Source of the DNA: Gemmatimonadota bacterium
Lineage (GTDB): Bacteria; Gemmatimonadota; Gemmatimonadetes; Palauibacterales; Palauibacteraceae
Assembly: GCA_039587755.1 (NCBI GenBank)
Contig: JBDHBD010000021.1
Span: forward strand, 8,027-72,026
Reading direction: 5' to 3'
DNA: 64,000 bases
The position numbers were made by a program, and so were the translations under genes. How positions within the stretch are numbered: position 1 is the stretch's first letter; every line of letters starts with the position of its first letter. Below, in pieces: positions 3,662-56,696 of the stretch. Below the pieces are notes generated by a model. The model was given only the letters and a program-made list of their open reading frames with translations. It was not told the origin of the DNA and made no database searches.

Positions 3662-6595
3662 TCAGTCCGCCGCCACGGGCTCGAGGCGGTAGGCCTGCTT
3701 CACCGGCTTCACCGGTCGCATCAGCCAGTGAGGGCGCCGCGTTCCGTCGGGTGATACCTGACGGGCCGAGCGTGTCTTGGCCAGCCATTTCTGGAACACG
3801 CGATGCGCCTTCTCGGTGTCGACCGCGATGTCTCCGTAGCGATCGCCCGACTCGGCGCGCCGCACCCGCACCGCCTGGTGCCAGCAATGCATCCCGGAGA
3901 TCGGGTCGGGGTGCACCGGGAAGGTGAGGTTCTGGTGCACACCCACGTCGGTCCACCAGATGCGTCGCGTGTCGGGATCGTCGGAATCATACGGACGGGC
4001 GCCGCGTTTCCGACCCATTCGCCACCCCGCCCCCTCCCGGTCGAGCTTGACCGTCGCCATCAGCTGCCGCTGGCCCTCATCCCCCAGTTTCCAGCGTCCC
4101 ATGTGATGGCTGCAGGCCACGACGCCCGGGCGGATCCCCTCTGTCACCCACGCCTTCACGACGAAGTAGCCGATCTCCGTCTCCACCCGCACCAGGCCGC
4201 CGGTCTTCATGCCCAGCGGGGCCGCGTCTTCCGGGTGGAGCCACAGCGGGTTCGTGTGGGCGATCTCGTCCAGCCATTTCGCGTTCGCGCTCCGCGTGTG
4301 GATCTGGACGGGAAGGCGGAACGTGGAGATCAGGACCTTCTGGTCCTCGGCCAGCACCTCGGGGTGGACGTGGCTCTTGATGTAGGTCGGCAGGGCGTAC
4401 TCCGGCCATCCCCAGCGCACGAGGGTCGGGGAGTAGAACTCCAGACGGCCGCTCGGGGTGGGAAAGCCGCGCACCACCTTGCCGTTCTGATGCACACCGG
4501 CCAGCCGACGCCCCTCGGCATCCGGCTCGGGGCTTCCCGTCGGGGCCAGATTCAGCGCGGCCGGTTTGGGGGCGTGCGTCCACACGCGTCCGAGTTCATC
4601 CTCCACCGCGTCCTTCAACTCGTCCCGGCCGACCTCTGCCTCGTACAGAGGTCCGATGTCGCGGGCGACCTCGAACGCGCCGTAGCGGCGCATGTAGGCC
4701 AGCGGGTCCAGTCCCTCTCGCTCGGCCGCCTCCGGAAGGCCAGGCACCGAGTTCTCGAAGATATAGCGGTAGTACTCGTCGACGCTCAACCGCTCGCCGG
4801 GGCGCTCGGCGGACTCGACGAACTCGCGGATTCCCAGCTCCCCGTCCGGATCGATGCGCCACGAGAGCTCGAGCCAGAACTCGTTCTCCTCCCACACCTC
4901 ACCGGGGTTCGTGTGGCGCGTGTCTCCGACGGCTTCACCCATGCGCTCGCGAGCCGCCCGCAGCACGGGCTGACGAAAACCGATCCACTGACCGTCGTGC
5001 GTCTCGTACGAGTGTATGTCGTGCCGTTCCGGCCCATGCCCCATGGGCAGGATGTAGTCGGCGAAGTAGGCACTCTCGTTCCACGTCGGTGTGAGAGCGA
5101 CGTGCAGGCCCACCCGTCTTTCGTCGGTCAGCATCTCGAGCCACGAGAAGCCATCCGGGTTCGTCCACACGGGGTTGTAGACGCGGGTGAAGTACACATC
5201 GAGCTTGCCTCGACCGTCCCGCACCAGATGCGGAAGCAGGAAGGAGAGCTCGTACATGGTGAGCGGGTACTCTTCGGGCCACGTGAGTCCGTTCCACGTC
5301 TCGGGGTGGCGAGGCAGACGGATTGGACGCGGTACGAACTTGTTCCACGCATTCGGATAGAGGCCGCCCGGTGTGGCCACGGCCCCCAGGAGGGCGTTGA
5401 GGAAGAAGAGGGTACGCGATACCTGCCACCCGCCCTCGTTCCCAGCGGCCGCGCTTCGCCAGTTATGGGTGGCGAACCGGGTGCCTGCCGTGGCGACGGT
5501 CTCCGCCACCTGACGCAGGACATCGGCCTCGATCCCCGATTCCTCGGCTGCATACTCGAACGTGTAGTCGGCGTACAGCCGCTTCAGCTCGTCCTCGAAT
5601 CGCTCGAAGGTTGGCTCGGCCTCCGGACGGGCCGCCTCCAGGTACTGCCGCCAGTTGAACCACCGCCGTACGTAGTCTCGGTTGTAGAGGTCGTTCTGAA
5701 TCAGGTGGTTCGCGATTGCCAGCAGCACGGCGGCCTCGGAGCCCGGGAACGTGGGCAGCCAGTAGTCGGCGTGGGTGGCGGTGTTCGAGAGACGGGTATC
5801 TAGCACGATGAGCTTGGCCCCCGCCTGCTTCGCCTCGGAGATCCGCTGCGCGTGGGGGTTGAAGTAGTGGCCCGTCTCCAGGTGCGAGCTTACCAGCAGT
5901 ATCACCTTCGCGCGGCTGTGATCGGGGCTCGGACGGTCGATCCCGCACCAGAACTGATATCCCGCACGCGCGCCGGACGAGCAGATGTTCGTGTGAGAGT
6001 TGTGGCCGTCCACCCCCCAGGCGGCCATGATCCGCTCGGTGAAGCCATCCTCCCCTGGACGACCCACATGGTACATGACCTCGCGGTGGCGACCCTCCTG
6101 AATCGCCTTTCGGATGCGCGCCGCTAGATCGTCCAGCGCTTCGTCCCAGCTCACACGGGTCCACTTCCCTTCCCCTCGCTCACCGCCTCGCTTGAGCGGA
6201 TACAGAATCCGATCCGGATCCGTGATCTGATTCCGGGTCGCGGGACCCTTAGCGCAGTTCCGCCCACGGGAGCCCGGATGTTCGGGATTGCCCTCGAACT
6301 TGCGGATCTCGAACGTCTCCCGGTCCACGTAGGCGAGAAGCCCGCACGCCGACTCGCAGTTGAAGCAGGTGGTGGGGACCAGCATGAATCGGCGCTCCAC
6401 CCGCTCGGGCCAGGCCCTGGAGTCCAGCTCGACCCAGTCGTCCCACCGCTCCCTGGGCGGGAAGGCCGCGAGGTGGACGCGGCTCGGGCCCGGATAGAAC
6501 GTCTCGCCGCGGGCCTCGGTCTCGGCCCGCGCGGCGCTCACTCTTCGGTTGACGTCGCTCAGATCCATCGCAGGTCTCCGGCGCGTTCCCGACAT
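3662..6595 (-). CDS. molybdopterin (Mo-bisPGD) oxidoreductase catalytic subunit, PsrA/PhsA/SoeA-like, no evident Tat signal
   Basis: 977 aa with the N-terminal C-x2-C-x3-C…C [4Fe-4S] motif (CFNCESACGLL…GRNCAKG) typical of complex-iron-sulfur molybdoenzymes. No twin-arginine motif with a hydrophobic h-region. Alternative start at 6568 (MDLSDV…, GGAGA RBS). Confidence 0.8.
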   Translation of the reverse strand: MSGTRRRPAMDLSDVNRRVSAARAETEARGETFYPGPSRVHLAAFPPRERWDDWVELDSRAWPERVERRFMLVPTTCFNCESACGLLAYVDRETFEIRKFEGNPEHPGSRGRNCAKGPATRNQITDPDRILYPLKRGGERGEGKWTRVSWDEALDDLAARIRKAIQEGRHREVMYHVGRPGEDGFTERIMAAWGVDGHNSHTNICSSGARAGYQFWCGIDRPSPDHSRAKVILLVSSHLETGHYFNPHAQRISEAKQAGAKLIVLDTRLSNTATHADYWLPTFPGSEAAVLLAIANHLIQNDLYNRDYVRRWFNWRQYLEAARPEAEPTFERFEDELKRLYADYTFEYAAEESGIEADVLRQVAETVATAGTRFATHNWRSAAAGNEGGWQVSRTLFFLNALLGAVATPGGLYPNAWNKFVPRPIRLPRHPETWNGLTWPEEYPLTMYELSFLLPHLVRDGRGKLDVYFTRVYNPVWTNPDGFSWLEMLTDERRVGLHVALTPTWNESAYFADYILPMGHGPERHDIHSYETHDGQWIGFRQPVLRAARERMGEAVGDTRHTNPGEVWEENEFWLELSWRIDPDGELGIREFVESAERPGERLSVDEYYRYIFENSVPGLPEAAEREGLDPLAYMRRYGAFEVARDIGPLYEAEVGRDELKDAVEDELGRVWTHAPKPAALNLAPTGSPEPDAEGRRLAGVHQNGKVVRGFPTPSGRLEFYSPTLVRWGWPEYALPTYIKSHVHPEVLAEDQKVLISTFRLPVQIHTRSANAKWLDEIAHTNPLWLHPEDAAPLGMKTGGLVRVETEIGYFVVKAWVTEGIRPGVVACSHHMGRWKLGDEGQRQLMATVKLDREGAGWRMGRKRGARPYDSDDPDTRRIWWTDVGVHQNLTFPVHPDPISGMHCWHQAVRVRRAESGDRYGDIAVDTEKAHRVFQKWLAKTRSARQVSPDGTRRPHWLMRPVKPVKQAYRLEPVAAD

Positions 6596-44712: not shown

Positions 44713-46794
44713 CTACCTTCTCGGGAGTGCGAAAGCCACCAAGTAGTCACCCTCTCCATGCGACCCGCCCCCGGCCGCGGCGATGACCACGTACTGTCGC
44801 CCGCTGGGGCCCCGATACGTCATCGGTGTGGCCTGACCAATCGCCGGCAGTTCCGCCTTCCAAAGTTCCTCGCCCGTGTCGATGTCGAAGGCTCTGAGCG
44901 CGGGGTCATCCGTGGAGGCGATGAACACGAGCCCGCCGGCCGTCGCGATCGGCCCGCCGAGGTTAATCGAACCGGCGTTGTCAGGAAGTAGGCGTAGCGT
45001 CTCCGAATCGCCCACGGGCATGCGCCCCAACGGCGTTTCCCACAGCCGCTCGCCCGTAGCTAGGCTCACGGCGACTAGCGCCCCGAAAGGCGGCGGCGTG
45101 CACGGGATCCCGGAGGGTGAGCGCAGGCTGCGCCGCCGCATCGCGTACGGGGTGCCTACCATGATGTTGTACTCGTAGCCCAGACCCAGGCGGCCCGACT
45201 CCGCCTCGGCACTGTCCCGACTGAATCCTTCGGCCGGAATGAGCTGAACCATCGCGGCGTGCCGGTTGACGGGTACGACCGCGATCTGGCGCACCGGGTC
45301 AAAGGTCAGACCGCCCCAATGCGCTCCACCGATGGTCGACGGCATGACGAGAGTGCCCTGAAGACTCGGTGGCGTGAAGATCCCCTCGTTTCGGAGAGCG
45401 CCGAGGATCTCCCGACACGCTTCCCGTTCCTCTTCGGTGACTCCGAACGCGTCCTCTGGTGTCACCTGGTGAGGGCTCAAGGGGTGGATCGCCGCCGTAA
45501 AGGGCTGGGTCGGCCAGGTCTCTTCTCCCGGCACGTCACTCGCTGGCACAGGTCGCTCCTCGACCTCGAAAAGGGCCTCGCCCGTCTCTCGGTGGAGCAC
45601 GAATAGCATACCGGTCTTCGTGGCCTGGAGAACGGCTGGAATCTCGATCTCAGCCTGAGGTCCTCCGTCAGGCTCACCTGATCGGCGCAAGGTCACTAGC
45701 GCCGGCGGAGACGCGTTGTCGTAATCCCACAGGTCGTGGTGCACCGTCTGGAAATCCCACACCACTTTGCCGGTCTGGGCGTCCAGCGCCACGATCGAGT
45801 TCCCGTACCGTCCGGCTCCTTTTCGAAGACCGCCGTAGTAGTCCGGGGCCGGGCTCGAAGTCGGCGCGAAGACGAGACCCCGTTGTGGGTCCGCAGTCAT
45901 GACCGACCACACGTTCGCGCTGCCTGTCAGCGCGGGGCTACCCTCCTGCCACGTTTCGAACGCCGGATCAAGCGGAGTCTGGGGGATCGGATCCCAGCTC
46001 CATCGAAGCTGGCCCGTACGGACGTCGAACGCGCGGACCTCGCCGCTGGCCGGCGCCCGGCGGCTGTTGTCCGCAATCGCCGAGCCCGTGATCACAAGAT
46101 CGCCAACGACGAGGGGTGGCGATGTGACCTGGTACGCCGGGTACTCGAAGGGCGCTATGCGGAGTCCCCGTCGGAGGTCGATCTGCCCTGACCCGCCGAA
46201 ATCCTGACATGGCCTGCCGTCGGCCGCGTCGAGCGCGATCAGTCTCGCGTCGATCGTCGCCGCGAAAATTCGACGGTCACAGCCCGACGTAGAACGGGTC
46301 GAGGGGTCGACCCTTCCGCTCCCCGTCGAGGCCGCCGCCACGAGGGCCGGGTCGACCCATATGGACACCCCGCGACTCGCGAAATCGCCGTAACTCTCAA
46401 ACCGGTCGATTCGCGCATCGTGGACCCAGAGCTCTTCACCTGTGTCCGCGTCGAGCGCGATCACGCGACCGAGAGGTGTACTCAGGTACATGATCCCCTC
46501 GACGACAATGGGGGTTGCCTCGAGCGTGGGTTCTTCACGAGTGGCGAAACCAGGGTCTGCTTCCCCTGTTTCGTAGCGCCATGCCACGGTGAGCTGCCGG
46601 ACGTTGGAGCGGTCTACTTCGTCCAGGCGCGAATAGCGGGAGCCGAATACGTCACCGCCGTAGGCCCACCATTCCGACCCGGGGGCTCCTCTTACGCCCG
46701 CATTGTCGGTTGAGTCCGCCCCAGCGCACGCCGAGAGAACCAGGGCCAATCCCGTGGCCCCGGTAATCAGCCGCCAAGAGGAAGCGGCGCTCAC
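44713..46794 (-). CDS. PQQ-dependent dehydrogenase (quinoprotein, 8-bladed propeller), lipoprotein/secreted
   Basis: Lipoprotein signal (LALVLSACAG) and repeated W-motif propeller pattern typical of PQQ glucose/alcohol dehydrogenases. GTG start overlaps the stop of the upstream gene. Confidence 0.75.
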   Translation of the reverse strand: MSAASSWRLITGATGLALVLSACAGADSTDNAGVRGAPGSEWWAYGGDVFGSRYSRLDEVDRSNVRQLTVAWRYETGEADPGFATREEPTLEATPIVVEGIMYLSTPLGRVIALDADTGEELWVHDARIDRFESYGDFASRGVSIWVDPALVAAASTGSGRVDPSTRSTSGCDRRIFAATIDARLIALDAADGRPCQDFGGSGQIDLRRGLRIAPFEYPAYQVTSPPLVVGDLVITGSAIADNSRRAPASGEVRAFDVRTGQLRWSWDPIPQTPLDPAFETWQEGSPALTGSANVWSVMTADPQRGLVFAPTSSPAPDYYGGLRKGAGRYGNSIVALDAQTGKVVWDFQTVHHDLWDYDNASPPALVTLRRSGEPDGGPQAEIEIPAVLQATKTGMLFVLHRETGEALFEVEERPVPASDVPGEETWPTQPFTAAIHPLSPHQVTPEDAFGVTEEEREACREILGALRNEGIFTPPSLQGTLVMPSTIGGAHWGGLTFDPVRQIAVVPVNRHAAMVQLIPAEGFSRDSAEAESGRLGLGYEYNIMVGTPYAMRRRSLRSPSGIPCTPPPFGALVAVSLATGERLWETPLGRMPVGDSETLRLLPDNAGSINLGGPIATAGGLVFIASTDDPALRAFDIDTGEELWKAELPAIGQATPMTYRGPSGRQYVVIAAAGGGSHGEGDYLVAFALPRR

Positions 46795-48305
46795 ATCGTC
46801 GGCTGCACGTTGGCGTTCAGGCGGAACAGATTCTCCGGGTCGTACTCGTTCTTGATCTGCACCAGCCGACTGTGGTTTTCCCGGTAGTTGCGGCTGACGG
46901 TCGGGGCCGTATGGTCGATCTCTAGGTCGTTCACGTAGAACCCCGTGGTGAACGACTCGATGGGCGACCAGAACTGCTTGATCCAAGCGATGTGCTCGCT
47001 GCCGTCTCGACCGAAGGGCCAGTTGACGAAGCTCAACAGGTTGCCCATCGCATCGCGGTGCGCGAAAGCGGTGGCGTCGTTGGCGACGCGCCCGATCACG
47101 CCTCCGCTCTGTTGCAGAAAGACCGCGGTGCTGCGCGACGGGTGCCCCTCCAGGCCCTCGACGATCCTCGAGACCAGCCCCTCCGGCATCTCCGTGATGA
47201 ACCCGCTCTTCAGGTAGGATGCGCGGGCTCTCGGATCGTCCGTGTCACCGGAGCGCTGTAGAGCTACGTAGTCCATGGCCTGGATAGTGTCGGCAATCGG
47301 GGTGCCGATCTTGCGAATGGGCGCGAACACGCTTTCCGCGTCACTCTCCTGCCCCGAGTAACAGCAGACGAAGCCGGCGGAGCCCGGCTCACCTCCCGGC
47401 GGGTGGGACACGAAGAACCCGATATCCAGCTCGTCGGGCGCCTCGTGGCTGAACTCGGAGAAGAAGCTCAACACGTCTCGAGCTTTGTCGATCGGGAATA
47501 CGATGTTGCCGGCGACGACCTGCCGCTGCATCGGGTGGAGCTGGAACAGGAAGGAGGTGACGATCCCGAAGTTCCCGCCGCCTCCGCGGACGCCCCAGAA
47601 CAGATCCTCGTTCTCGTCGGCGCTCGCACGGAGGAGCTGGCCGTCGGCCGTCACCACATCCACGGCCAGGAGATTGTCGACCGAGAGTCCGAAGCGTCGT
47701 CCCAGTCGCCCGAAGCCTCCTCCCGTGACCAACCCGCCGGCACCCGTGTGCGACACCGTGCCCATCGTGGTGACCAGGTCGTGCGCCATTGCTTCGTGGT
47801 CCACCTGCCCCAGCAGGCTGCCTCCCGTCACTCGTGCCGTGCGAGCCACCGGATCGACTCGACAATCCCGGAAGTGTGCAAGGTCGATCTGCATACCGCG
47901 GTCGCACGTCGATTTGCCCGAGGAGCTGTGTCCTCCGCATTTCACGGCGAGCAACAGATTGTCGTGCTCGCGCGCGAAGCTCACGGCGGTTCGGACATCC
48001 GCCGCTCCGGTCGGCTGCACGACGAGTGCGGGGTGCTTGTCAAAGGACGGATTAAGGAGGAGCCGCGCCTCGTTATACCCGTCGTCTCCGGCCAGTAGCA
48101 CGCGCCCCCTCAAACGGGCGCTCAGATCTGCGATGTCCTTGCCGCTGATTGTGATTTCGCCCCCAGCTCCCGTAACCGCGTCGACGTCGGGCGGGACCTG
48201 TGGAGCTTCCTGGAACAAGGGACTGGCGCGTAACGAGCGGCCATAAGGAATCGATGCGGCCGCCGCAGCGGCGAAGGAGGAACGGATGAACGTGCGTCGC
48301 TTCAT
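46791..48305 (-). CDS. FAD-linked oxidase (PCMH-type FAD-binding, BBE/vanillyl-alcohol-oxidase-like) with Tat signal
   Basis: Twin-arginine leader MKRRTFIRSSFAAAAAASIP, FAD-binding domain pattern and a C-terminal BBE-like region. ATG 48305 with GGAGG RBS. Confidence 0.75.
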   Translation of the reverse strand: MKRRTFIRSSFAAAAAASIPYGRSLRASPLFQEAPQVPPDVDAVTGAGGEITISGKDIADLSARLRGRVLLAGDDGYNEARLLLNPSFDKHPALVVQPTGAADVRTAVSFAREHDNLLLAVKCGGHSSSGKSTCDRGMQIDLAHFRDCRVDPVARTARVTGGSLLGQVDHEAMAHDLVTTMGTVSHTGAGGLVTGGGFGRLGRRFGLSVDNLLAVDVVTADGQLLRASADENEDLFWGVRGGGGNFGIVTSFLFQLHPMQRQVVAGNIVFPIDKARDVLSFFSEFSHEAPDELDIGFFVSHPPGGEPGSAGFVCCYSGQESDAESVFAPIRKIGTPIADTIQAMDYVALQRSGDTDDPRARASYLKSGFITEMPEGLVSRIVEGLEGHPSRSTAVFLQQSGGVIGRVANDATAFAHRDAMGNLLSFVNWPFGRDGSEHIAWIKQFWSPIESFTTGFYVNDLEIDHTAPTVSRNYRENHSRLVQIKNEYDPENLFRLNANVQPTM

Positions 48306-48457
48306 GAATGCCTCCGGCTGCTGGGACCAAGCGCGGAAAGCTGCAGATATAGGTGAGGCTGGGACGTTCGGCAATCGCTTTCTAATGGCGCACGGTGGAC
48401 GTGAGGTTCACAATGTCCTGGAAGAGGTGGGTCACTATGTAGAGGGAGGCGTGATTG

Positions 48458-48883
48458 ATGAAGATTGTCGTCGGCAGTGTTTGCGCGCTGTTATGGCTCG
48501 TGTACGTCGGACAGTTTATATCATCCGTTAACTTCCCCCTGGCGCAGAGGCTCGGTTTGCAGGAGAAGGCAGACGACACCGATGCTCTGGCAAGTCGTCT
48601 CGAGCTGGGTACGGCACGCTGGGACTTGCTGTCGCTGTGGACCTTGCCGGTCGCATGCATCTTGTTGCTGATGGATCATTCCTGGTGGCCGTATATGGCG
48701 CTCATCGGCGGCGGCGTCTACGTGGATACCGGTGGACGCGAGGCGGTCAAGTGGTTGGGCCTGCGCAGCCGGGGTGTCCGGGTCGGGACCCCGCAGGAGT
48801 TCCGGCTCGCAATGGGGCTGTTCATGTTCCTGGTGGCGGTCGGCGCGATCACGATCGTTCTCGCTCTCGTCGAAGTGGCGTGA
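48458..48883 (+). CDS. hypothetical small membrane protein
   Basis: Four predicted TM helices; RBS GAGGGAGG; sits in a locally lower-GC stretch. Its stop overlaps the start of the ankyrin gene (GTGATGG). Confidence 0.45.
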   Translation: MKIVVGSVCALLWLVYVGQFISSVNFPLAQRLGLQEKADDTDALASRLELGTARWDLLSLWTLPVACILLLMDHSWWPYMALIGGGVYVDTGGREAVKWLGLRSRGVRVGTPQEFRLAMGLFMFLVAVGAITIVLALVEVA

Positions 48884-49668
48884 TGGAAGAGGCGTTCTTG
48901 ACCGCCGTCGAGCTTCACTCGATCGATGGCATTCGAGCCGTACTCGAAGCCGGCCTCGATCCGGCTTCATCCATTCGTGGCAAGTTACCGGTCGAGTGGC
49001 TGACGCAGATGTACACGCGATCACCGCGCTTCTCGGACTGCCTGAGGATGCTGCTCGAAGCGGGCGCCACGCTGGATGACCCGAGTCTGGCGGCGGTCCT
49101 CCTCGATGATGCGGAAAGTCTCGCGGCAGCGATTGGCGGCGATCGCTCCCTTCTCGAGCTACGCACGACGGTGACGTCTGCGTTCACACCGCTCGAGGGC
49201 GCGCCGCTGCTGCACGTGGCCGCCGAGTACGGGAATGCGAGGGCGGCTCGCGTGCTCATCGAGGCGGGGTGCGACGTCGAGGCCAGAGCGTCGATCGACG
49301 AGTACGGGCTGGGTGGTCATACGGCCCTGTTCCACACGGTCAATTCGAACGACAACTACGCGCAGCCCATCCTGCGCTTGCTGCTGAAGGCGGGAGCACG
49401 GACCGATGTGCGTCTCCAAGGAATCATTTGGGGCAAGGGCTTCGCGTGGGAAACAACCCTGTTCGACGTCACACCGGTCTCGTACGCGCAAGCGGGACTG
49501 CTCCCCCAGATGCACCGCGAGCCGGCGGACATCTACGACAACATCGAGTTGATGCTCCGAACCTCGCACCGACCCGTCCCACCCCGGGTCAACGTGCCGA
49601 ACGAGTACCTGACGGACGACTCCGACTCGCGAGTGGGCGGGCACACCTCCGGAGGAGCGGATGGCTGA
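48883..49668 (+). CDS. ankyrin-repeat protein
   Basis: Repeated …G(A/H)T(A/P)LH.A…N…(V/L)LLEAGA(D/T)… units (≥4 repeats) over 261 aa. Confidence 0.7.
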   Translation: MEEAFLTAVELHSIDGIRAVLEAGLDPASSIRGKLPVEWLTQMYTRSPRFSDCLRMLLEAGATLDDPSLAAVLLDDAESLAAAIGGDRSLLELRTTVTSAFTPLEGAPLLHVAAEYGNARAARVLIEAGCDVEARASIDEYGLGGHTALFHTVNSNDNYAQPILRLLLKAGARTDVRLQGIIWGKGFAWETTLFDVTPVSYAQAGLLPQMHREPADIYDNIELMLRTSHRPVPPRVNVPNEYLTDDSDSRVGGHTSGGADG

Positions 49669-50182
49669 TCGAATCGCGCAGACCGACCTGGGTCGAGGAG
49701 AGGTCGAGCTGCTAGCGGACGCGGACGGACACCGTCGACTCTTCACGACGGGGTTGGTGAAGGCGGGCGAGGTCGTCATCCGGCTCGACGGCGCAGTCTA
49801 CCCGCAGCCAAGTCGCTACAGCATTCAGGTCGGCGCGCACGCCCACCTCGATGACCTCGGCGTAGTCGAAGCCACGAACCACAGCTGCGAGCCGACGGCG
49901 TTCGTCGATTTTTCGGCCGGCGAACCCACCCACCTTCGAGCGATTCGCGACCTCCCGATCGGTACGGAGGTCACGATCAACTACTGCGCGACCGAGGAGG
50001 AGATGACCTCACCGTTTCGCTGTAATTGCGGCTCAGCGAGGTGTTATGGCGTGGTAGGCGGGTATCGGTTGCTCGAGCCTTCACAGCGAGACCGGCTGGC
50101 CAGGTGGCTCAGCCCGTATCTGGCGGCGAAGTACAGCGACGGTTACGACGCGTGGAGCAACCAGGAGAACCAGGAGAGCTGA
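49661..50182 (+). CDS. SET-domain protein (putative protein-lysine N-methyltransferase)
   Basis: NHSCEPT pseudoknot motif, …TEVTINYC… and post-SET Cys cluster FRCNCGSARCYG. Overlaps the ankyrin gene by 8 nt. Confidence 0.7.
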   Translation: MADRIAQTDLGRGEVELLADADGHRRLFTTGLVKAGEVVIRLDGAVYPQPSRYSIQVGAHAHLDDLGVVEATNHSCEPTAFVDFSAGEPTHLRAIRDLPIGTEVTINYCATEEEMTSPFRCNCGSARCYGVVGGYRLLEPSQRDRLARWLSPYLAAKYSDGYDAWSNQENQES

Positions 50183-50184
50183 TC

Positions 50185-50766
50185 ATGAACAGGCTCGGTA
50201 TCACCGCACTGGCGTTGATCGGCTTGTGCCCGGCCGTGCATGCCCTGGCGCAAGAGCCCGTCGTCGGAGCTGGAACCCGACTGAGGGTGCGAACGGCTGA
50301 GGTCGGAGCGGCAGGCGACTTAGCGGAAACGCGAGGCACACGCTTCGTGGGACATGTCGACAGAGTCTCGGCCGATTCTCTGTGGATTCACCTGGATTCG
50401 GCGGACGGCCCTCTCCTCTCGATTGACCGCGCGACGATTCAAGAGCTGGAGGTCAGTAGCGGCCGAAAGCGTAACGCCGGAAAAGGTGCACTCTGGGGTG
50501 GCGGCGTGGGGCTGGCTCTCGGGATTCTTGGCGCGATCGCCGTGGATGACTGCGGGGTGTCTATTAATGACGATTTCTTCGACTTCTGCGATGGAGAAGA
50601 GGCCACCATCATCCTGGGCAGCACGCTGACTCTTGCCGGCGTGGGTGCACTCGTCGGGCTTCTAGTAACGAGCGAGCGCTGGGTGGAGATTCCGCCCGCG
50701 AGCCTCACCCTGCGAGGCGAGGACGGACAACTCGGACTCGGAATCGAGGTGCGCTTGAGGTTGTAG
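50185..50766 (+). CDS. hypothetical secreted protein with C-terminal glycine-zipper membrane segment
   Basis: Signal peptide MNRLGITALALIGLCPAVHALA and C-terminal GxxxG-rich hydrophobic stretch. Confidence 0.4.
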   Translation: MNRLGITALALIGLCPAVHALAQEPVVGAGTRLRVRTAEVGAAGDLAETRGTRFVGHVDRVSADSLWIHLDSADGPLLSIDRATIQELEVSSGRKRNAGKGALWGGGVGLALGILGAIAVDDCGVSINDDFFDFCDGEEATIILGSTLTLAGVGALVGLLVTSERWVEIPPASLTLRGEDGQLGLGIEVRLRL

Positions 50767-50900: not shown

Positions 50901-51887
50901 TCAATGCCTCGACGACGGCTTGCGCCTCTCGAATACGCCGCGCGCGGCGGGTAGCGGAGCGTCCCCATACACGTACGACTCCAGGAAGAGGCGAGCGGAG
51001 AGCGATCGCCACACGTCACCCGCGCCGAGATCGTACGGACGGCTCATCATGTCGGTGTTGGCCATTACGATGAACGTTCGTCGAACCGCGGGGGCTCGAA
51101 CGATGAGGGTCGAGGTGGCATACCAGTGTCCGTAGTGCCACTGCAGCTCGACTCCCTGCGCTGCTGGATAAACCACCCCAACCCGTACGGCAGCAGGCTC
51201 CCGCCGTTTGAGACCGCGGGGGTGAACACCGCCTGCCACGTCGCTGGCTCGAGAAACATGCCCTGATCGATTGCGCTCGCGAACGTGGCCATGTCGTGTG
51301 CGGAAGAGATCAGTCCCGCCGCCGAGCTGAACCCGATCGCATACTCGGATCGGACGACCCGTGAGCCTCTTCGTTCGTACGGCGTCGCCATGTTGGCCGT
51401 GAACTCGTCCCGATTCAGACCCGTCAGGGCGAAATTGGCCGGGTCGGAGGGGCTCGGAGCGGTGTGCCTCAACTGCACCCGGCACTCCCTCCGAGGTGTG
51501 GGTCAGAAGGTGTCGGACGAGGATGACGCCCTGGCTCGAGAGATCGATCCCGTAATCGGAGACCGGATCGTCCAAATCGAGAAGCCCCCCCTCGACGAGC
51601 TGCATGATGATGACCGAGGCAAAGGGCTTAGTGAGTGAGGCGAGGTGAAAGCATGTGGACTCCGTTACCGGCTTCCCCGCCGCGATGTCGGCGAACCCCA
51701 AGCCCCTGGTCCAAACGACTTGTGCGTCTTCCACGATGGCGGCCGACATGTCTGGGATCGCGTGCTCCACGCGGAGCGTGTCCAGGCGGGCCTCGAAACC
51801 TTGGAGACCCGGCGTGAAGTCCACTGGGAAGTTGGGTACTCCGGGCCCCGGCGCGGACGGATCGGAACCACAAGCGACCGAGACCAA
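50901..51887 (-). pseudogene. beta-lactamase-family serine hydrolase (class C/PBP-like), disrupted by two frameshifts
   Basis: SxxK active-site motif (FHLASLTKPFASVII) lies in the long frame. The central ~100 residues (…YAIGFSSAAGLISSAHDMATFASAIDQG…GLGWFIQQ) are encoded in another frame (ORF 51065..51478), and the C-terminal (…WHYGHWYATSTLIVRAP…IVMANTD) returns to the first frame. Confidence 0.55.
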
Positions 51888-52154
51888 GAACAGGGGATGA
51901 GCAGGCGGATGCGACTCATCATGTCAACCCGGTGATCAAGGAGCGTCCGCTCAACTGCATGCGCTCGGAAAAGATATGGAACTGTCCACTACGTGACTAC
52001 TCTCGAGCGAGCCCCCGTCTTGACCGGCTTCGCTGGCCCTCCGCACGTTGCTACGCGGAGCACGTATGCCGAGGGGCAGCCGCGATGGAGGAGTCGCCTC
52101 TCTATCGACGTCCGAAGGCCCGACCGACGAGAATCGAGAAGAGGAGAACCTACC

Positions 52155-52529
52155 ATGGCCCACCACGGGAAGATCCAGCTTACGCTCATCATCGTCGCCC
52201 CTCCGGAGCTGGCAGCAGAGGGTGAACGCCTCTTTCGGAGTCATGCTCCTTGGATGGAGGCTACGCATCACCGGGAAGGGGACAAAGCTCTTCTGAGCTA
52301 CAATGTGTCCAAGGCGCCAGAGCTTTCGAATCCGATGGATCCCAACTCAGCACCGACTGGAAACACGTGCTTCATCCTGACCGAGATCTATGAGACTGAG
52401 GCCGGCGTAGCCGACCACTTTCAGCAGGCAGAGACAAGTTGGGAGGACTTCCCGGCTGTCGCGGAGTGGATGGAGAAATGCTCGGTAACGGGGGTGCCGG
52501 TGGCTACGATCATCAATTCGCTTTGGTGA
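52155..52529 (+). CDS. hypothetical small protein
   Basis: 124 aa from ATG 52155 with GAGGAG RBS; no firm family. Confidence 0.4.
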   Translation: MAHHGKIQLTLIIVAPPELAAEGERLFRSHAPWMEATHHREGDKALLSYNVSKAPELSNPMDPNSAPTGNTCFILTEIYETEAGVADHFQQAETSWEDFPAVAEWMEKCSVTGVPVATIINSLW

Positions 52530-52600
52530 GCAAGCGGAGTCGGCACAGACCCGAGCCACGTACCTTGGCAACTTCTGTCACTCAACCCATGGAGGATTTC

Positions 52601-53041: not shown

Positions 53042-53662
53042 TTACGCTCCGCGCCTGCGGCGAACGCGCATCCCGTCCAACACCGTTCGCGTGGTGTGCC
53101 GGATGAGCCCATCGATGTCGTCCGTGGAGTGGATCTGCCCCTCGATCACCAGTGACGCCAGGCCGTGCACCGCGGCCCAGGCCGTGTAGGCCTGCGCTCG
53201 GGGATCCTGCCGTTTGATCGAGCCCGTGCGCTGGTAGGTCTGGATCACGTCGACCAGCTGTTCGAAGATGGCGGTTGCGGCCTCCCCTAACTCGGGCAGG
53301 TCTTCGCGAGTCAGCGCCTCCCTGCCGTACATCAGGCGGTAGTGCGCCGGATTCTCGATGGCGAAGCGCACGTACTCCTCGCCCATTCGCCGGAGCCGCT
53401 CGACGCTGGATCGCGGGGCACCCGCGTCGATGGTTCGCAGACGGTCTCCGAGTCGCTCGAACCCGGCCGCGGCGACCGCGACCAGAAGCGCGTTCTTGTC
53501 CGCGAAGTGGCGATACGGTGCAGCGCGCGACACGCCGAGACGACGGCCGAGCGCTCGCATCGTCACGCTCCCGGCCCCTCCCTGGTCGATCATGGCCGCG
53601 GCTTCGTCGAGCAGTGCCGCCCGAAGGTCCCCGTGATGATACGCCCTCGCCTGGTCGGTCAT
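53042..53662 (-). CDS. TetR/AcrR-family transcriptional regulator
   Basis: N-terminal HTH …SVTMRALGRRLGVSRAAPYRHFADKNALL… with the typical TetR C-terminal helical domain. Confidence 0.8.
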   Translation of the reverse strand: MTDQARAYHHGDLRAALLDEAAAMIDQGGAGSVTMRALGRRLGVSRAAPYRHFADKNALLVAVAAAGFERLGDRLRTIDAGAPRSSVERLRRMGEEYVRFAIENPAHYRLMYGREALTREDLPELGEAATAIFEQLVDVIQTYQRTGSIKRQDPRAQAYTAWAAVHGLASLVIEGQIHSTDDIDGLIRHTTRTVLDGMRVRRRRGA

Positions 53663-53664
53663 GC

Positions 53665-53731
53665 GTCAACATGGGGCAAGATGTTGACGTAGTCAACTTC
53701 TGTGGGTATGTTGTATGTTGACGTTGTCAAC
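53665..53731. promoter_or_regulatory. three palindromic TetR-type operator candidates (GTTGAC-N3-GTCAAC ×2 and GTCAACAT-N8-ATGTTGAC) in the divergent intergenic region
   Basis: Read directly at 53665-53688, 53683-53697 and 53717-53731, between the TetR start (53662) and the + gene at 53793. Confidence 0.5.
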
Positions 53732-53792
53732 ACAGCTGGCGGTTTAACCCACAGGATCAAGAGCTAGACGTCCTTAGGACGGAGAATAATGC

Positions 53793-54440
53793 ATGGCAGT
53801 CAACGAAGACCTCATAGGATTCATCCGAGAGGCCCTGAATCGGGGCCTGCCACGCGACGAGATCCGAGGCGTGCTGAGTCAGGCTGATTGGTCGGACGAA
53901 GAGGTGCAGGCAGCGCTCCGATCGTTTGCGGCGGTCGACTTCCCCATCGCCGTCCCACGGCCGCGGCCGTCGCTCTCGGCTCGAGAGGCGTTCGAGTACC
54001 TGGTCCTCTTCGGTACCCTCTATCTCAGTGCCTATGGCCTGGGAAGCCTGCTCTTCCAATTCATCAACCTCGCGTTTCCGGACCCGCTCTGGTCGCAGGA
54101 CGAAATCGACGCGATACCCGAGGTCATCCGATGGTCTATTGCATCGCTCGTGGTCGCGACGCCTGTCTTCCTCTATGCGGCAAGAACCATTAGCCGAGCG
54201 ATCGCTCTCTCACCACTGAAGAGAACCTCCCCTGTGCGCCGGTGGCTCACCTACCTGACCCTGGCGATCGCAGCAGGTATCCTTATTGGGGACTCCACCA
54301 GCCTGGTCTACAACCTCCTCGGTGGAGAAGTGACCGCCCGGTTCCTACTAAAGGCTCTGACGATCGGAATCATCGCCGGTACCGCCTTCGTCTACTATCT
54401 CCGCGATATTCGGCGAGACGAGAAGGAGGTGGGTGGATGA
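53793..54440 (+). CDS. hypothetical integral membrane protein
   Basis: Soluble N-terminal ~60 aa then 4 TM helices; divergent from TetR. Confidence 0.5.
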   Translation: MAVNEDLIGFIREALNRGLPRDEIRGVLSQADWSDEEVQAALRSFAAVDFPIAVPRPRPSLSAREAFEYLVLFGTLYLSAYGLGSLLFQFINLAFPDPLWSQDEIDAIPEVIRWSIASLVVATPVFLYAARTISRAIALSPLKRTSPVRRWLTYLTLAIAAGILIGDSTSLVYNLLGGEVTARFLLKALTIGIIAGTAFVYYLRDIRRDEKEVGG

Positions 54441-55019: not shown

Positions 55020-56696
55020 TCAGATACGTTGCTGGTTGGTGGTTTCGCAGAATGTCGGCGGCTCGTACGTCCAGCCCCGACGCAATCGACGCTCCTCACG
55101 CCGCAACATGAAGCCGGCGTACCGGCCGACGAGCGGACCCACCGCGCGAGCCTTGAACCCGAATTCGCGGTAGAAGTCGCGCAGGATCTGCCCGATCTTC
55201 GACTCCAAGACCGGGTCAGCACGAGCCCACCGCCGTGCCGCCCACAGCGCACCTGCGTAACTGACGGCGAGATGACGGGCCTCCCAAGCGAACCGCCTGC
55301 GTATTCGGGCCTCGGAGTGGTCCCGGTACCGCCGCCACCCCTGCAACGTGGTCCGCGCGACCCTCACGATGCTCGGCCCGTTCACCTTGAAGTCGCGTTC
55401 GAACGCCCTTCGGAGGAACTCCGTCTCCTGTCCATCCTTGATGTGGGGGTGGCGGTGGCTGAACCGGAATTGTCCGTGATGGTCCGCCTCGGGGCATTCG
55501 TCGGGATCGACGAGCGTTCCCTTCTCGAGATGCTCGCCAAACAGCGGCGTGCCCCCGACGGGCGTGTACAGCATGAACTGATGAAAGTCCGTGTCGTGAG
55601 CTACCGCGTAGTCGATGGCAGCGTCGATGTTCTCTGGCGTGTGCTCCTCGAGCCCGATGATCGTTGAGCCGAGCACGCGGATGCCGTGGCTCTGCAGCAC
55701 ACGCACCAATTCCTGGGTGTCGATCCCCCTGAGCTTGACATAGTCCGCGCCCTCGCCCTCGAGTCCCATCCAGACCCACGAGATCCCGAGCGCCACCAGC
55801 TGCTCGATCGTATATCGCTGGAGCACGTTGGCCGAGCTGAACGCGTAGAGAGCCCAGGGCTTGTCGTTCTCCGCCATGAGGTCCAGCAGTTGCAGCGCAC
55901 GCTTCCGGTACAACAGGAAGTTCTCGTCCATCACGAAGAACGACCGCACACGCATCGCGTCTTCCAGCTCGCACATTACGTCGAACAGCTCGTCTCCCGT
56001 CTCGTAGAAATGGACGAACTTCCCCTTCCCGCCGAACATCGCTGAGGTCGCGCAGAAGTTGCAGCCCATCGGACAGCCCACGGAAGGAATCAGTGTCGCT
56101 GCGGTGGCGCCGGGTCTGCGCCGGAGGGTGATTCCCATCGTGCGCGCTCCGACGCCGGAGAGGATATGGGGGTGCCTGATCGGGCGGTCTTCGTCTTCCG
56201 AGAGGAAACGCCGCATCCAGCGCACGCCCTCGCCTCGGACGATGTGGTCGGCGTCGATGCGCTCGTCCAGATCGGGCAGGTTCGCGACGTGCCCGCCGAC
56301 CACGATCGTGGCGTCGGGCAGATGCTGACGAACCAGCTCGCACATCTTCCGCACCTTCCCGACGTTGGGCTGGATCGCTCCGATTCCCACGATGTCGTAT
56401 GGGTGCGTGGCGATCTCCTCAATGAAGCGGTCCATCGTCGGGAAATCCAGGAGCGTACAGGGAGCGTCGATATTGTTCTGAATGAGCATCAGCCCCCACG
56501 AGCGGTGGAACATCCGCACGGAGAACGCTCGTTGCTCGCGGGTTACCTGGTTATGGTAGAGCTCCATCGGGTTCAGGGCCCGGCTTCCGTATTCGTCATC
56601 CTGCGCATAGGGCCCGAATACGCTCGTCAGCAACACGCGCGCGTCGGACCGCAAAGGGTGTGGATGCTCGAACGACGCGCTAGCGCTGGAGGTCAT
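55020..56696 (-). CDS. B12-binding-domain radical SAM protein (class B rSAM; DUF4070-like C-terminus)
   Basis: N-terminal cobalamin-binding Rossmann-like region (…IVGIGAIQPN…IVVGGHVANL…) and a CxxxCxxC cluster (SVGCPMGCNFCAT). Confidence 0.75.
   Translation of the reverse strand: MTSSASASFEHPHPLRSDARVLLTSVFGPYAQDDEYGSRALNPMELYHNQVTREQRAFSVRMFHRSWGLMLIQNNIDAPCTLLDFPTMDRFIEEIATHPYDIVGIGAIQPNVGKVRKMCELVRQHLPDATIVVGGHVANLPDLDERIDADHIVRGEGVRWMRRFLSEDEDRPIRHPHILSGVGARTMGITLRRRPGATAATLIPSVGCPMGCNFCATSAMFGGKGKFVHFYETGDELFDVMCELEDAMRVRSFFVMDENFLLYRKRALQLLDLMAENDKPWALYAFSSANVLQRYTIEQLVALGISWVWMGLEGEGADYVKLRGIDTQELVRVLQSHGIRVLGSTIIGLEEHTPENIDAAIDYAVAHDTDFHQFMLYTPVGGTPLFGEHLEKGTLVDPDECPEADHHGQFRFSHRHPHIKDGQETEFLRRAFERDFKVNGPSIVRVARTTLQGWRRYRDHSEARIRRRFAWEARHLAVSYAGALWAARRWARADPVLESKIGQILRDFYREFGFKARAVGPLVGRYAGFMLRREERRLRRGWTYEPPTFCETTNQQRI

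Follow-up and report, generated by a model that had tools for sequence, protein, structure and literature searches.

An ankyrin-repeat gene and a BurB-related SET-domain gene in a candidate lineage-specific operon of a Gemmatimonadota bacterium

In a Gemmatimonadota bacterium of the family Palauibacteraceae (assembly GCA_039587755.1, contig JBDHBD010000021.1, positions 8,027–72,026 of the forward strand), a gene for an ankyrin-repeat protein overlaps a gene for a SET-domain protein. The whole stretch of 64,000 nucleotides (nt) is called the window here, and positions are counted from its first letter. The locus raises the question of whether the two genes are parts of one eukaryote-like system or neighbours from separate bacterial families, and on what the putative methyltransferase acts. 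An earlier note on this DNA had described a "eukaryote-like cassette" of three overlapping genes, coding for a small membrane protein, an ankyrin-repeat protein and a SET-domain methyltransferase. The overlapping gene order was found as described, with the junctions TGATG and ATGGCTGA. The extent of the cassette had to be enlarged, since a fourth gene that the note did not list follows the three after 2 nt. The eukaryote-like character was not supported by the analysis: base composition and codon use are native, the close SET relatives that were found belong to Gemmatimonadota, and the three genes are not a conserved unit. The explanation that we consider probable, with some reserve, is a lineage-specific operon of four unrelated native bacterial genes, in which the SET protein (the product of the third open reading frame, ORF3) would be an active stand-alone methyltransferase related to the enzyme BurB of Burkholderia and acting on an endogenous substrate. 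The genes and motifs concerned are the following.

48458–48883, + strand: ORF1, small membrane protein, 141 amino acids (aa)
48881–48885, + strand: TGATG junction of ORF1 and ORF2, with one base common to the ORF1 stop codon and the ORF2 start codon
48883–49668, + strand: ORF2, ankyrin-repeat protein, 261 aa
49198–49287, + strand: canonical ankyrin repeat of ORF2, residues 106–135, LHVAAEYGN... (Pfam PF00023, E 5.4e-9)
49661–49668, + strand: ATGGCTGA junction of ORF2 and ORF3, an 8-nt overlap of the ORF3 start with the ORF2 stop
49661–50182, + strand: ORF3, SET-domain protein, 173 aa
49877–49894, + strand: NHSCEP motif of ORF3, N73–P78, SET pseudoknot and S-adenosylmethionine (SAM)-binding site, read from the sequence
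49982–49984, + strand: Tyr108 of ORF3, active-site tyrosine equivalent to BurB Tyr124 (family-invariant; aligned to ...MDY of BurB)
50021–50044, + strand: post-SET cluster C121-x-C123-x4-C128 of ORF3, predicted zinc site together with C76 (aligned to CxCx4C of BurB and MLL)
50185–50766, + strand: ORF4, 193 aa, signal peptide and two glycine-zipper hydrophobic segments, 2 nt past the ORF3 stop

The contexts of the homologues of ORF1, ORF2 and ORF3 led to the rejection of a conserved three-gene module. A tblastn search of the eight loci with a bacterial SET orthologue did not reveal a homologue of ORF1, ORF2 or ORF4 in any of them. Conversely, six-frame analysis of 80 metagenomic ankyrin loci (339 kb) and seven others gave no SET-profile match at E ≤ 1, and ORF1 and ORF4 were also absent from these loci. 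About 85 loci of the ankyrin family (50–70% identity, several phyla) were found to lack a SET gene. The neighbours in further ankyrin contexts included LptC/LptB/RpoN, SnoaL/DoxX/DinB, a tRNA synthetase and efflux pumps, again with no SET gene. The adjacency of the ankyrin and SET genes is lineage-specific and was seen nowhere else among the loci examined, and the cassette is far from universally conserved; universal conservation would, by the earlier note, have counted against its reading. These comparisons show that ORF1, ORF2 and ORF3 each belong to a widespread bacterial family of their own, normally located in other, variable contexts.

The composition of the genes is consistent with a native origin. 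The GC content at third codon positions was 0.78, 0.79 and 0.78 for ORF1, ORF2 and ORF3, respectively, against 0.68–0.88 in 15 long reference ORFs of the window, and the codon-bias scores of the three genes lay within the range of the same reference ORFs. The compositional check that the earlier note had proposed for horizontal transfer thus counts against such transfer. A motif scan, performed with one genome per species and a single narrow motif derived from an alignment of eight sequences, returned eight bacterial SET orthologue loci with 42–58% identity, all eight of them from metagenome-assembled genomes (MAGs) of Gemmatimonadota, as well as two archaeal SET loci (L025 and L026) with 28–34% identity. 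In the two closest genomes (L001/L017 and L018), the SET gene is preceded, on the opposite strand, by an orthologue (70% identity) of the FAD oxidase gene that lies before ORF1 in the window. The features that flank the four genes in the window are listed below.

46791–48374, − strand: FAD/BBE-type oxidase gene (Pfam FAD_binding_4 and BBE)
48375–48457: divergent intergenic region between the FAD/BBE oxidase gene (−) and ORF1 (+), of lower local GC content, with the Shine-Dalgarno sequence GGGAGG at 48444–48449
50901–51887, with 51068–51478, − strand: broken beta-lactamase-family gene

The proximity of the SET gene to the corresponding FAD oxidase gene in two related genomes argues for vertical inheritance, and the SET gene is native and probably ancestral at this position. 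The slot between the SET gene and the oxidase gene is variable: it holds a DinB gene and a gene for a 182-aa protein in L001, and ApbE and GFO/IDH/MocA oxidoreductase genes in L018. The pair of ORF1 and the ankyrin gene would have been placed between the oxidase and SET genes later, in the lineage of the window. A SET gene in Gemmatimonadota is to be expected, since it is already accepted that free-living bacteria and archaea have native SET genes (PMC3980110). Horizontal transfer from eukaryotes was rejected in view of the native composition, the finding of close SET relatives in Gemmatimonadota only and the synteny with the FAD oxidase gene. A radical SAM gene of the window (55020–56696) was also considered as an orthologue of the radical SAM gene adjacent to the SET gene in L001; their identity was 23%, and they were regarded as paralogous members of one family.

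The same data bear on the idea of a horizontally acquired, secreted effector pair with which the chromatin of a protist, as host or predator, would be modified. Among the effectors of intracellular bacteria, SET and ankyrin domains are over-represented (PMC3980110, PMC10653858). However, the composition is native, the SET gene appears to be inherited within Gemmatimonadota and members of the ankyrin family occur widely in several phyla of soil and sediment bacteria. In addition, neither ORF2 nor ORF3 has an N-terminal hydrophobic segment of the signal-peptide kind, and no secretion-system domain was found in the 17 nearby ORFs that the scan covered (about 10 kb on either side). The best eukaryotic relatives of ORF3 are tandem arrays, and their identity to it (31–36%) is lower than that of the bacterial relatives. 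We therefore regard an effector pair as very improbable. For the methyltransferase, a bacterial rather than a host target is the more reasonable reading, and an endogenous bacterial target, which the earlier note had put forward, is possible.

What, then, is the function of ORF3? Its Pfam SET match (PF00856) scored 30.4 bits against a cut-off of 22.4, and a profile of the SET family built here scored 196 bits and detected a single copy in the window. The NHSC pseudoknot and the post-SET cysteine cluster, which the earlier note had described as intact, are present, as is the catalytic tyrosine, whose loss would have spoken against that description. In an alignment of 30 family members, H74, C76, Y108, F119, C121, C123 and C128 were invariant and N73 was conserved in at least 90%. 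The AlphaFold model was confident (predicted local distance difference test score, pLDDT, 89.2) and showed the beta-fold expected of a SET domain. ORF3 is predicted to consist of a compact SET domain, in which the SET-I insert is very short, followed by a post-SET zinc cluster and, at the C-terminus, three helices. In histone enzymes, the SET-I insert forms part of the peptide groove. ORF3 carries every motif needed for SAM-dependent methyl transfer (the NHSC pseudoknot, Tyr108 and the Cys4 post-SET site), and it is very probably an active methyltransferase of a compact, BurB-related, uncharacterised SET family.

An exhaustive HMMER search with ORF3 against 1.84 billion cluster representatives revealed the size of this family: 2779 representatives matched at E ≤ 0.001 and 720 at E ≤ 1e-10. 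Most of the members are single-domain proteins of 150–180 aa from metagenomes and MAGs. The top-scoring relatives (P0123, P0124, P0125 and P0129) are eukaryotic tandem arrays of the same compact SET unit, for example a Trypanosoma brucei protein of 1449 aa with eight matched stretches and a Mesostigma viride protein of 1415 aa with five. Versions with two to five copies were also frequent among the matches. In a Candidatus Methanoperedens contig (L025), SET matches were located at 5179–5400 and 6001–6330, about 600 nt apart, with 36% and 34% identity, so that tandem or nearby duplication of the compact unit appears to occur in archaea too.

Fusions and neighbours of family members provide some hints on the type of substrate. 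A Gemmatimonadota orthologue with 58% identity (289 aa; L018, 6001–6870) carries a C-terminal GNAT acetyltransferase domain, and the more distant relatives P0263 and P0208 are fused to ATP-grasp domains of the D-Ala-D-Ala-ligase type. Two GNAT genes are located upstream of the SET orthologue in L022. As a single case, in the Gemmatimonadota MAG contig L023, the SET orthologue (1111–1704) is followed after about 40 nt by a gene resembling deoxyhypusine synthase and homospermidine synthase (1747–2793). The fusions and the GNAT and deoxyhypusine-synthase neighbours hint at amine or amino-acid chemistry, but they are compatible with protein substrates too.

The comparison with proteins of established function points in a similar direction. 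BurB of Burkholderia thailandensis (PDB 9l4t, 9l4v) is a SET protein of 172 aa that converts free methionine to S-methylmethionine (PMC12542666). It grips methionine via main-chain atoms, and its Y124A substitution abolishes activity (PMC12542666); a methionine S-methyltransferase of Streptomyces mobaraensis is homologous to it (PMC12542666). In a phmmer search, ORF3 matched BurB with E 2.3e-10, compared with E 3.8e-6 for the best histone enzyme, KMT2B. The SET-family profile gave 100 bits for BurB and 65 bits for MLL1, and in this alignment the SET-I position of MLL1 carried about 21 inserted residues. Foldseek with the ORF3 model placed BurB at rank 1 and ASH1L next. BurB is, by every sequence and structure measure used, the nearest characterised relative and the nearest solved structure. 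Since this relative is a methionine S-methyltransferase, a protein-lysine target of ORF3 is not to be assumed. The substrate of ORF3 would be endogenous, with a slight lean to a small amino-acid-like or amine metabolite over protein lysine. Three features speak for this lean: the position of BurB as closest characterised protein, the shortness of the SET-I insert and the fusions of relatives with GNAT and ATP-grasp domains.

A more specific proposal is that ORF3 is itself a BurB-type methionine S-methyltransferase, producing S-methylmethionine as the first step to dimethylsulfoniopropionate (DMSP) or a related sulfonium compound. The two proteins are similar in length and in the very short SET-I insert, they share Q56, H62, H74, C76, Y108, F119 and CxCx4C, and part of the profile alignment continues past the post-SET cluster. 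The methionine substrate cannot be read from the sequence of ORF3, since BurB binds methionine through main-chain atoms. The identity is only 23–27%, however, and P50, R52 and N73 are different in BurB. Among the 17 ORFs scanned, no gene of the BurI decarboxylase, BurD aminotransferase or BurE dehydrogenase type and no DMSP pathway gene was found, and no SAM or methionine riboswitch was detected. Reviews describe burB as restricted to Burkholderia or a narrow taxon range (PMC13360808), and a neighbour-joining tree did not group ORF3 with BurB. A literature search for SET-domain small-molecule methyltransferases did not turn up any further enzyme beyond BurB. Altogether, this function seems rather unlikely for ORF3; it overlaps with the small-metabolite lean of the explanation that we prefer, and the confidences in the two are not additive.

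The ankyrin protein presents a different picture. ORF2 exceeded the Pfam cut-off for Ank (36.3 bits against 21.1), and also those for Ank_3 and Ank_2. The ankyrin repeats that the earlier note had reported are present, with the amendment that just one repeat (residues 106–135) passes Pfam, while the AlphaFold model (pLDDT 86) contains about six helix pairs. Fold and sequence matches were generic, namely the RNase L ANK domain, ankyrins and DARPins, and a weak match to the NCBIfam model of Legionella AnkY (18.9 bits against a cut-off of 600) reflects the generic repeat alone. A profile of the ankyrin family built here scored 448 bits, with a single copy in the window. The family includes more than 2000 homologues of about 250 aa with 63–70% identity, from Acidobacteriota, Bacteroidota and other groups. 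An alignment of 20 sequences from different phyla (about 65% identity) contained 72 invariant columns, and the invariant stretches include FTPLxGA..LHVAAE, GHT.LFHTVN, WGxGFxW.T and NVPNxYL. ORF2 is a cytoplasmic protein of a very conserved stand-alone bacterial family. All-against-all clustering of the ORFs in 85 loci did not reveal a recurrent neighbour of the ankyrin gene: only the gene itself and its shadow ORFs recurred, and the next-largest cluster of neighbour ORFs spanned 7 of the 85 loci. Since the family is strongly constrained in genomes that have no SET gene nearby, the partner of ORF2 is probably not ORF3 but something that many bacteria have in common.

The C-terminal tail of ORF2 (residues 244–261) is absent from most relatives and is not conserved, and the pLDDT falls below 50 for residues 252–261. 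As this tail extends into the start of ORF3, it gives rise to the 8-nt overlap of the two genes, in which the ORF2 stop codon TGA occupies 49666–49668, within ATGGCTGA, where ORF3 begins. The ankyrin gene would thus read through a non-conserved tail into the SET start codon, and, from the alignment and the model, read-through that followed a recent juxtaposition accounts for the overlap better than a coupling that is old and under selection.

These observations weigh on the possibility of a split writer similar to RomA, in which ORF2 would bind an endogenous nucleoid or ribosomal protein and present its lysine to ORF3, the two proteins forming a two-subunit protein-lysine methyltransferase. 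The genes are adjacent, overlap by 8 nt and lie in one operon, and ORF3 has the NHSC motif, Tyr108 and the post-SET cluster as in lysine methyltransferases. In RomA/LegAS4, the ankyrin repeats contact the substrate and are needed for SET activity (PMC10653858), and a SET protein from archaea has the chromatin protein MC1-alpha as a substrate (PMC3980110). Against this, the joint inheritance of SET and ankyrin parts that characterises RomA was not found here (none of the eight SET orthologue loci and none of the approximately 85 ankyrin loci). The ankyrin family is constrained where no SET gene is nearby, the SET orthologues function without an ankyrin protein, the SET-I insert is very short, and the overlap stems from the non-conserved tail of ORF2. 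A split writer is thus considered unlikely. In a variant of it, the native SET protein would have been captured recently into an operon with the conserved ankyrin protein, resulting in a RomA-like two-subunit lysine methyltransferase that acts on an endogenous, for example nucleoid-associated, protein. We regard this capture as quite improbable; if true, it would provide a free-living bacterium with its own equivalent of a chromatin writer that uses an ankyrin adaptor. According to the lineage-specific operon explanation, ORF3 would work without the ankyrin protein, like its orthologues.

ORF1 contains strong hydrophobic segments at residues 3–21 and 120–138 and a weaker central one. It had no match among Pfam, NCBIfam or other family models. 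A total of 166 homologues with 50–75% identity, mostly of 141–143 aa, were found, from which ORF1 is recognised as a member of a conserved bacterial family of small membrane proteins. An ankyrin gene accompanied the ORF1 relative in one of five contexts and was lacking in the other four. The one context with the pair was that of L107 (SRR32197423), where the closest relative of ORF1 (75% identity) is followed by an ankyrin gene that is also 75% identical. This pair appears to be young and narrowly distributed. In L107 (641–760), a 59-nt spacer parts the two genes. The sequence of the junction recurs in this spacer (…GTGGCGTGATG… then …GTGCCGTGATGGAAGA…), which gives the appearance of a duplicated junction. 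Two other homologues, in L012 (5506–5946) and L108 (647–1087, − strand), adjoin a common membrane protein of 146 aa that is 73% identical between the loci and is oriented in the same direction as the ORF1 homologue once and convergently once. Judging from these two loci, the ORF1 family would usually be partnered by a further small membrane protein and not by an ankyrin protein.

The four genes form a unit on the + strand, overlapping or abutting one another, with the FAD/BBE oxidase gene (−) on one side and the broken beta-lactamase-family gene (−) on the other. The same four genes were called on a sister contig (L006) from a Joint Genome Institute (JGI) metagenome. The start codons of ORF1, ORF2 and ORF3 are all backed by homologues: ORF1 relatives have 141 aa and are covered to 99–100%, the ankyrin relatives start at the same Met as ORF2, and the closest SET relative likewise begins with MAD. 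The features expected of a coupled operon were found, namely the same strand, overlapping stop and start codons and an ORF2 that has no ribosome-binding site. The A of the ORF1 stop TGA (48881–48883) is the first base of the ORF2 ATG, and reading of the junction did not reveal a Shine-Dalgarno sequence of its own ahead of ORF2. On these two grounds, the translation of ORF2 would be coupled to that of ORF1. The translational coupling claimed in the earlier note is thereby retained for ORF2 as an inferred property; ORF3 has its own Shine-Dalgarno sequence just upstream (GGAGGA), as do ORF1 (GGGAGG) and ORF4 (AGGAGA). Overlapping junctions are common locally (5 of 29 co-directional pairs in the window, by a rough gene call).

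The lower-GC spacer from which the cassette was said to begin does exist, with a GC content of 0.57–0.58 at 48200–48650 against 0.65 for the whole window. It is not distinctive, since comparable dips are located at 52100–52550 and 53600–53900, two within the next 5 kb. The spacer corresponds to the promoter region from which the FAD oxidase gene and ORF1 diverge, and the four genes would be co-transcribed from it (48375–48457). A sigma-70 consensus promoter was not found upstream, the consensus being uninformative for this phylum. There was no Rfam element in the 48375–48457 region and no convincing terminator between the genes of the unit, and neither the operon nor the SET orthologues were preceded by a riboswitch or another RNA element. 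A possible role as an anti-phage defence system was dismissed, as PADLOC gave no meaningful match.

ORF4 did not match any family model, and no homologue was found in any locus fetched, although it was also called as a gene on L006. Its sequence features suggest a secreted or membrane-anchored glycine-zipper protein. It was compared with the 182-aa protein encoded upstream of the SET gene in L001, and the two are unrelated. In the beta-lactamase-family gene, the N-terminal third (Pfam profile positions 3–109) and a later part (192–279) are in different frames, and L006 (3858/3859) is devoid of 35 nt (window positions 51570–51604) inside the same gene. This gene looks like a decaying pseudogene that varies in the population, or else an assembly error. 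On the other side, the longest ORFs of a pyrroloquinoline quinone (PQQ)-dehydrogenase gene (44713–46986, −) and of the FAD oxidase gene (46791–48374, −) overlap by about 196 nt as listed, which is most likely an artefact of choosing the most upstream start codon.

Several points weigh against the explanation by a lineage-specific operon of unrelated genes with a stand-alone ORF3. Co-transcription from the divergent region is itself deduced. The tight packing, the 8-nt overlap and the lack of a ribosome-binding site before ORF2 are also what a functional module would look like, and the lack of conservation is compatible with a lineage-specific partnership. The scan for SET orthologues had limited recall with its single narrow motif, and its coverage is incomplete. 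The pair of ORF1 and the ankyrin gene is conserved in L107, whose contig stops before a downstream SET gene could be visible. As for the substrate, GNAT and ATP-grasp enzymes act on proteins too, so that the fusions leave it unsettled. The identity between ORF3 and BurB is as low as 23–27%. In the neighbour-joining tree, which is not decisive, ORF3 is as distant from BurB as from MLL1, and ORF3 keeps the Asn of NHSC that is typical of lysine methyltransferases, where BurB has Leu.

The cassette itself is of little weight: a pairing of ankyrin and SET genes that looks eukaryote-like can, in a free-living bacterium, be a chance, lineage-specific operon of native genes. The by-product of the analysis is a large compact SET family whose only characterised relative found, BurB, acts on free methionine and not on a protein. 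Should small molecules be the general substrates of this family, it would mislead to annotate stand-alone SET proteins of bacteria by default as methyltransferases of protein lysines or histones. Under the same condition, the production of S-methylmethionine or other methylated osmolytes could exceed the narrow taxon range now assigned to burB. The interest that remains attaches to what the large compact SET family related to BurB methylates, and to the strong conservation of a stand-alone ankyrin family that has no described function.

Among the known systems, BurB resembles ORF3 in its single SET domain, its length of about 170 aa and its very short SET-I insert, and also in the HSC residues, the active-site Tyr and the CxCx4C cluster. 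Of the family-invariant residues that it shares with ORF3, Q56 and H62 are family-specific. The C-terminal helices are predicted in ORF3, and the alignment of BurB to the family profile covers part of the stretch downstream of the post-SET cluster. BurB differs in having LHSC in place of NHSC and in lacking P50 and R52, which belong to the PxRYSIQ motif of the family, as well as N73; these residues are near-invariant in the family. Furthermore, burB is located in the bur biosynthetic cluster with burI, burD and burE, none of which is near ORF3.

RomA/LegAS4 of Legionella pneumophila is an effector that combines SET and ankyrin parts and methylates histone H3 at K14 (PMC10653858). Its ankyrin repeats hold the H3 tail and make about half of the contacts to the peptide substrate, and SET activity depends on them (PMC10653858). 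As in the window, a SET catalytic domain is combined with about six ankyrin repeats. However, RomA/LegAS4 is a single polypeptide with the SET domain at the N-terminus and the ankyrin repeats at the C-terminus, is exported through a type IV secretion system and has the histone H3 of the host as its target, whereas in the window the genes are separate, the ankyrin gene comes first, their pairing lacks conservation, neither a secretion signal nor a secretion system was seen and the structural similarity is weaker.

Go1-SET of Methanosarcina mazei methylates the endogenous chromatin protein MC1-alpha in vitro (PMC3980110). By its description, it is likened to ORF3 as a small stand-alone SET protein of a free-living prokaryote; in contrast, no gene for MC1 or another candidate substrate adjoins ORF3. 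The eukaryotic histone lysine methyltransferases MLL/KMT2, ASH1L, NSD and SETD2 share with ORF3 the NHSCxP pseudoknot, the Tyr of the catalytic site and the post-SET zinc cluster, with significant similarity in sequence and fold. They differ in that their SET-I region is about 21 residues longer and their SET domain is flanked by AWS or other domains, whereas ORF3 has extra C-terminal helices instead.

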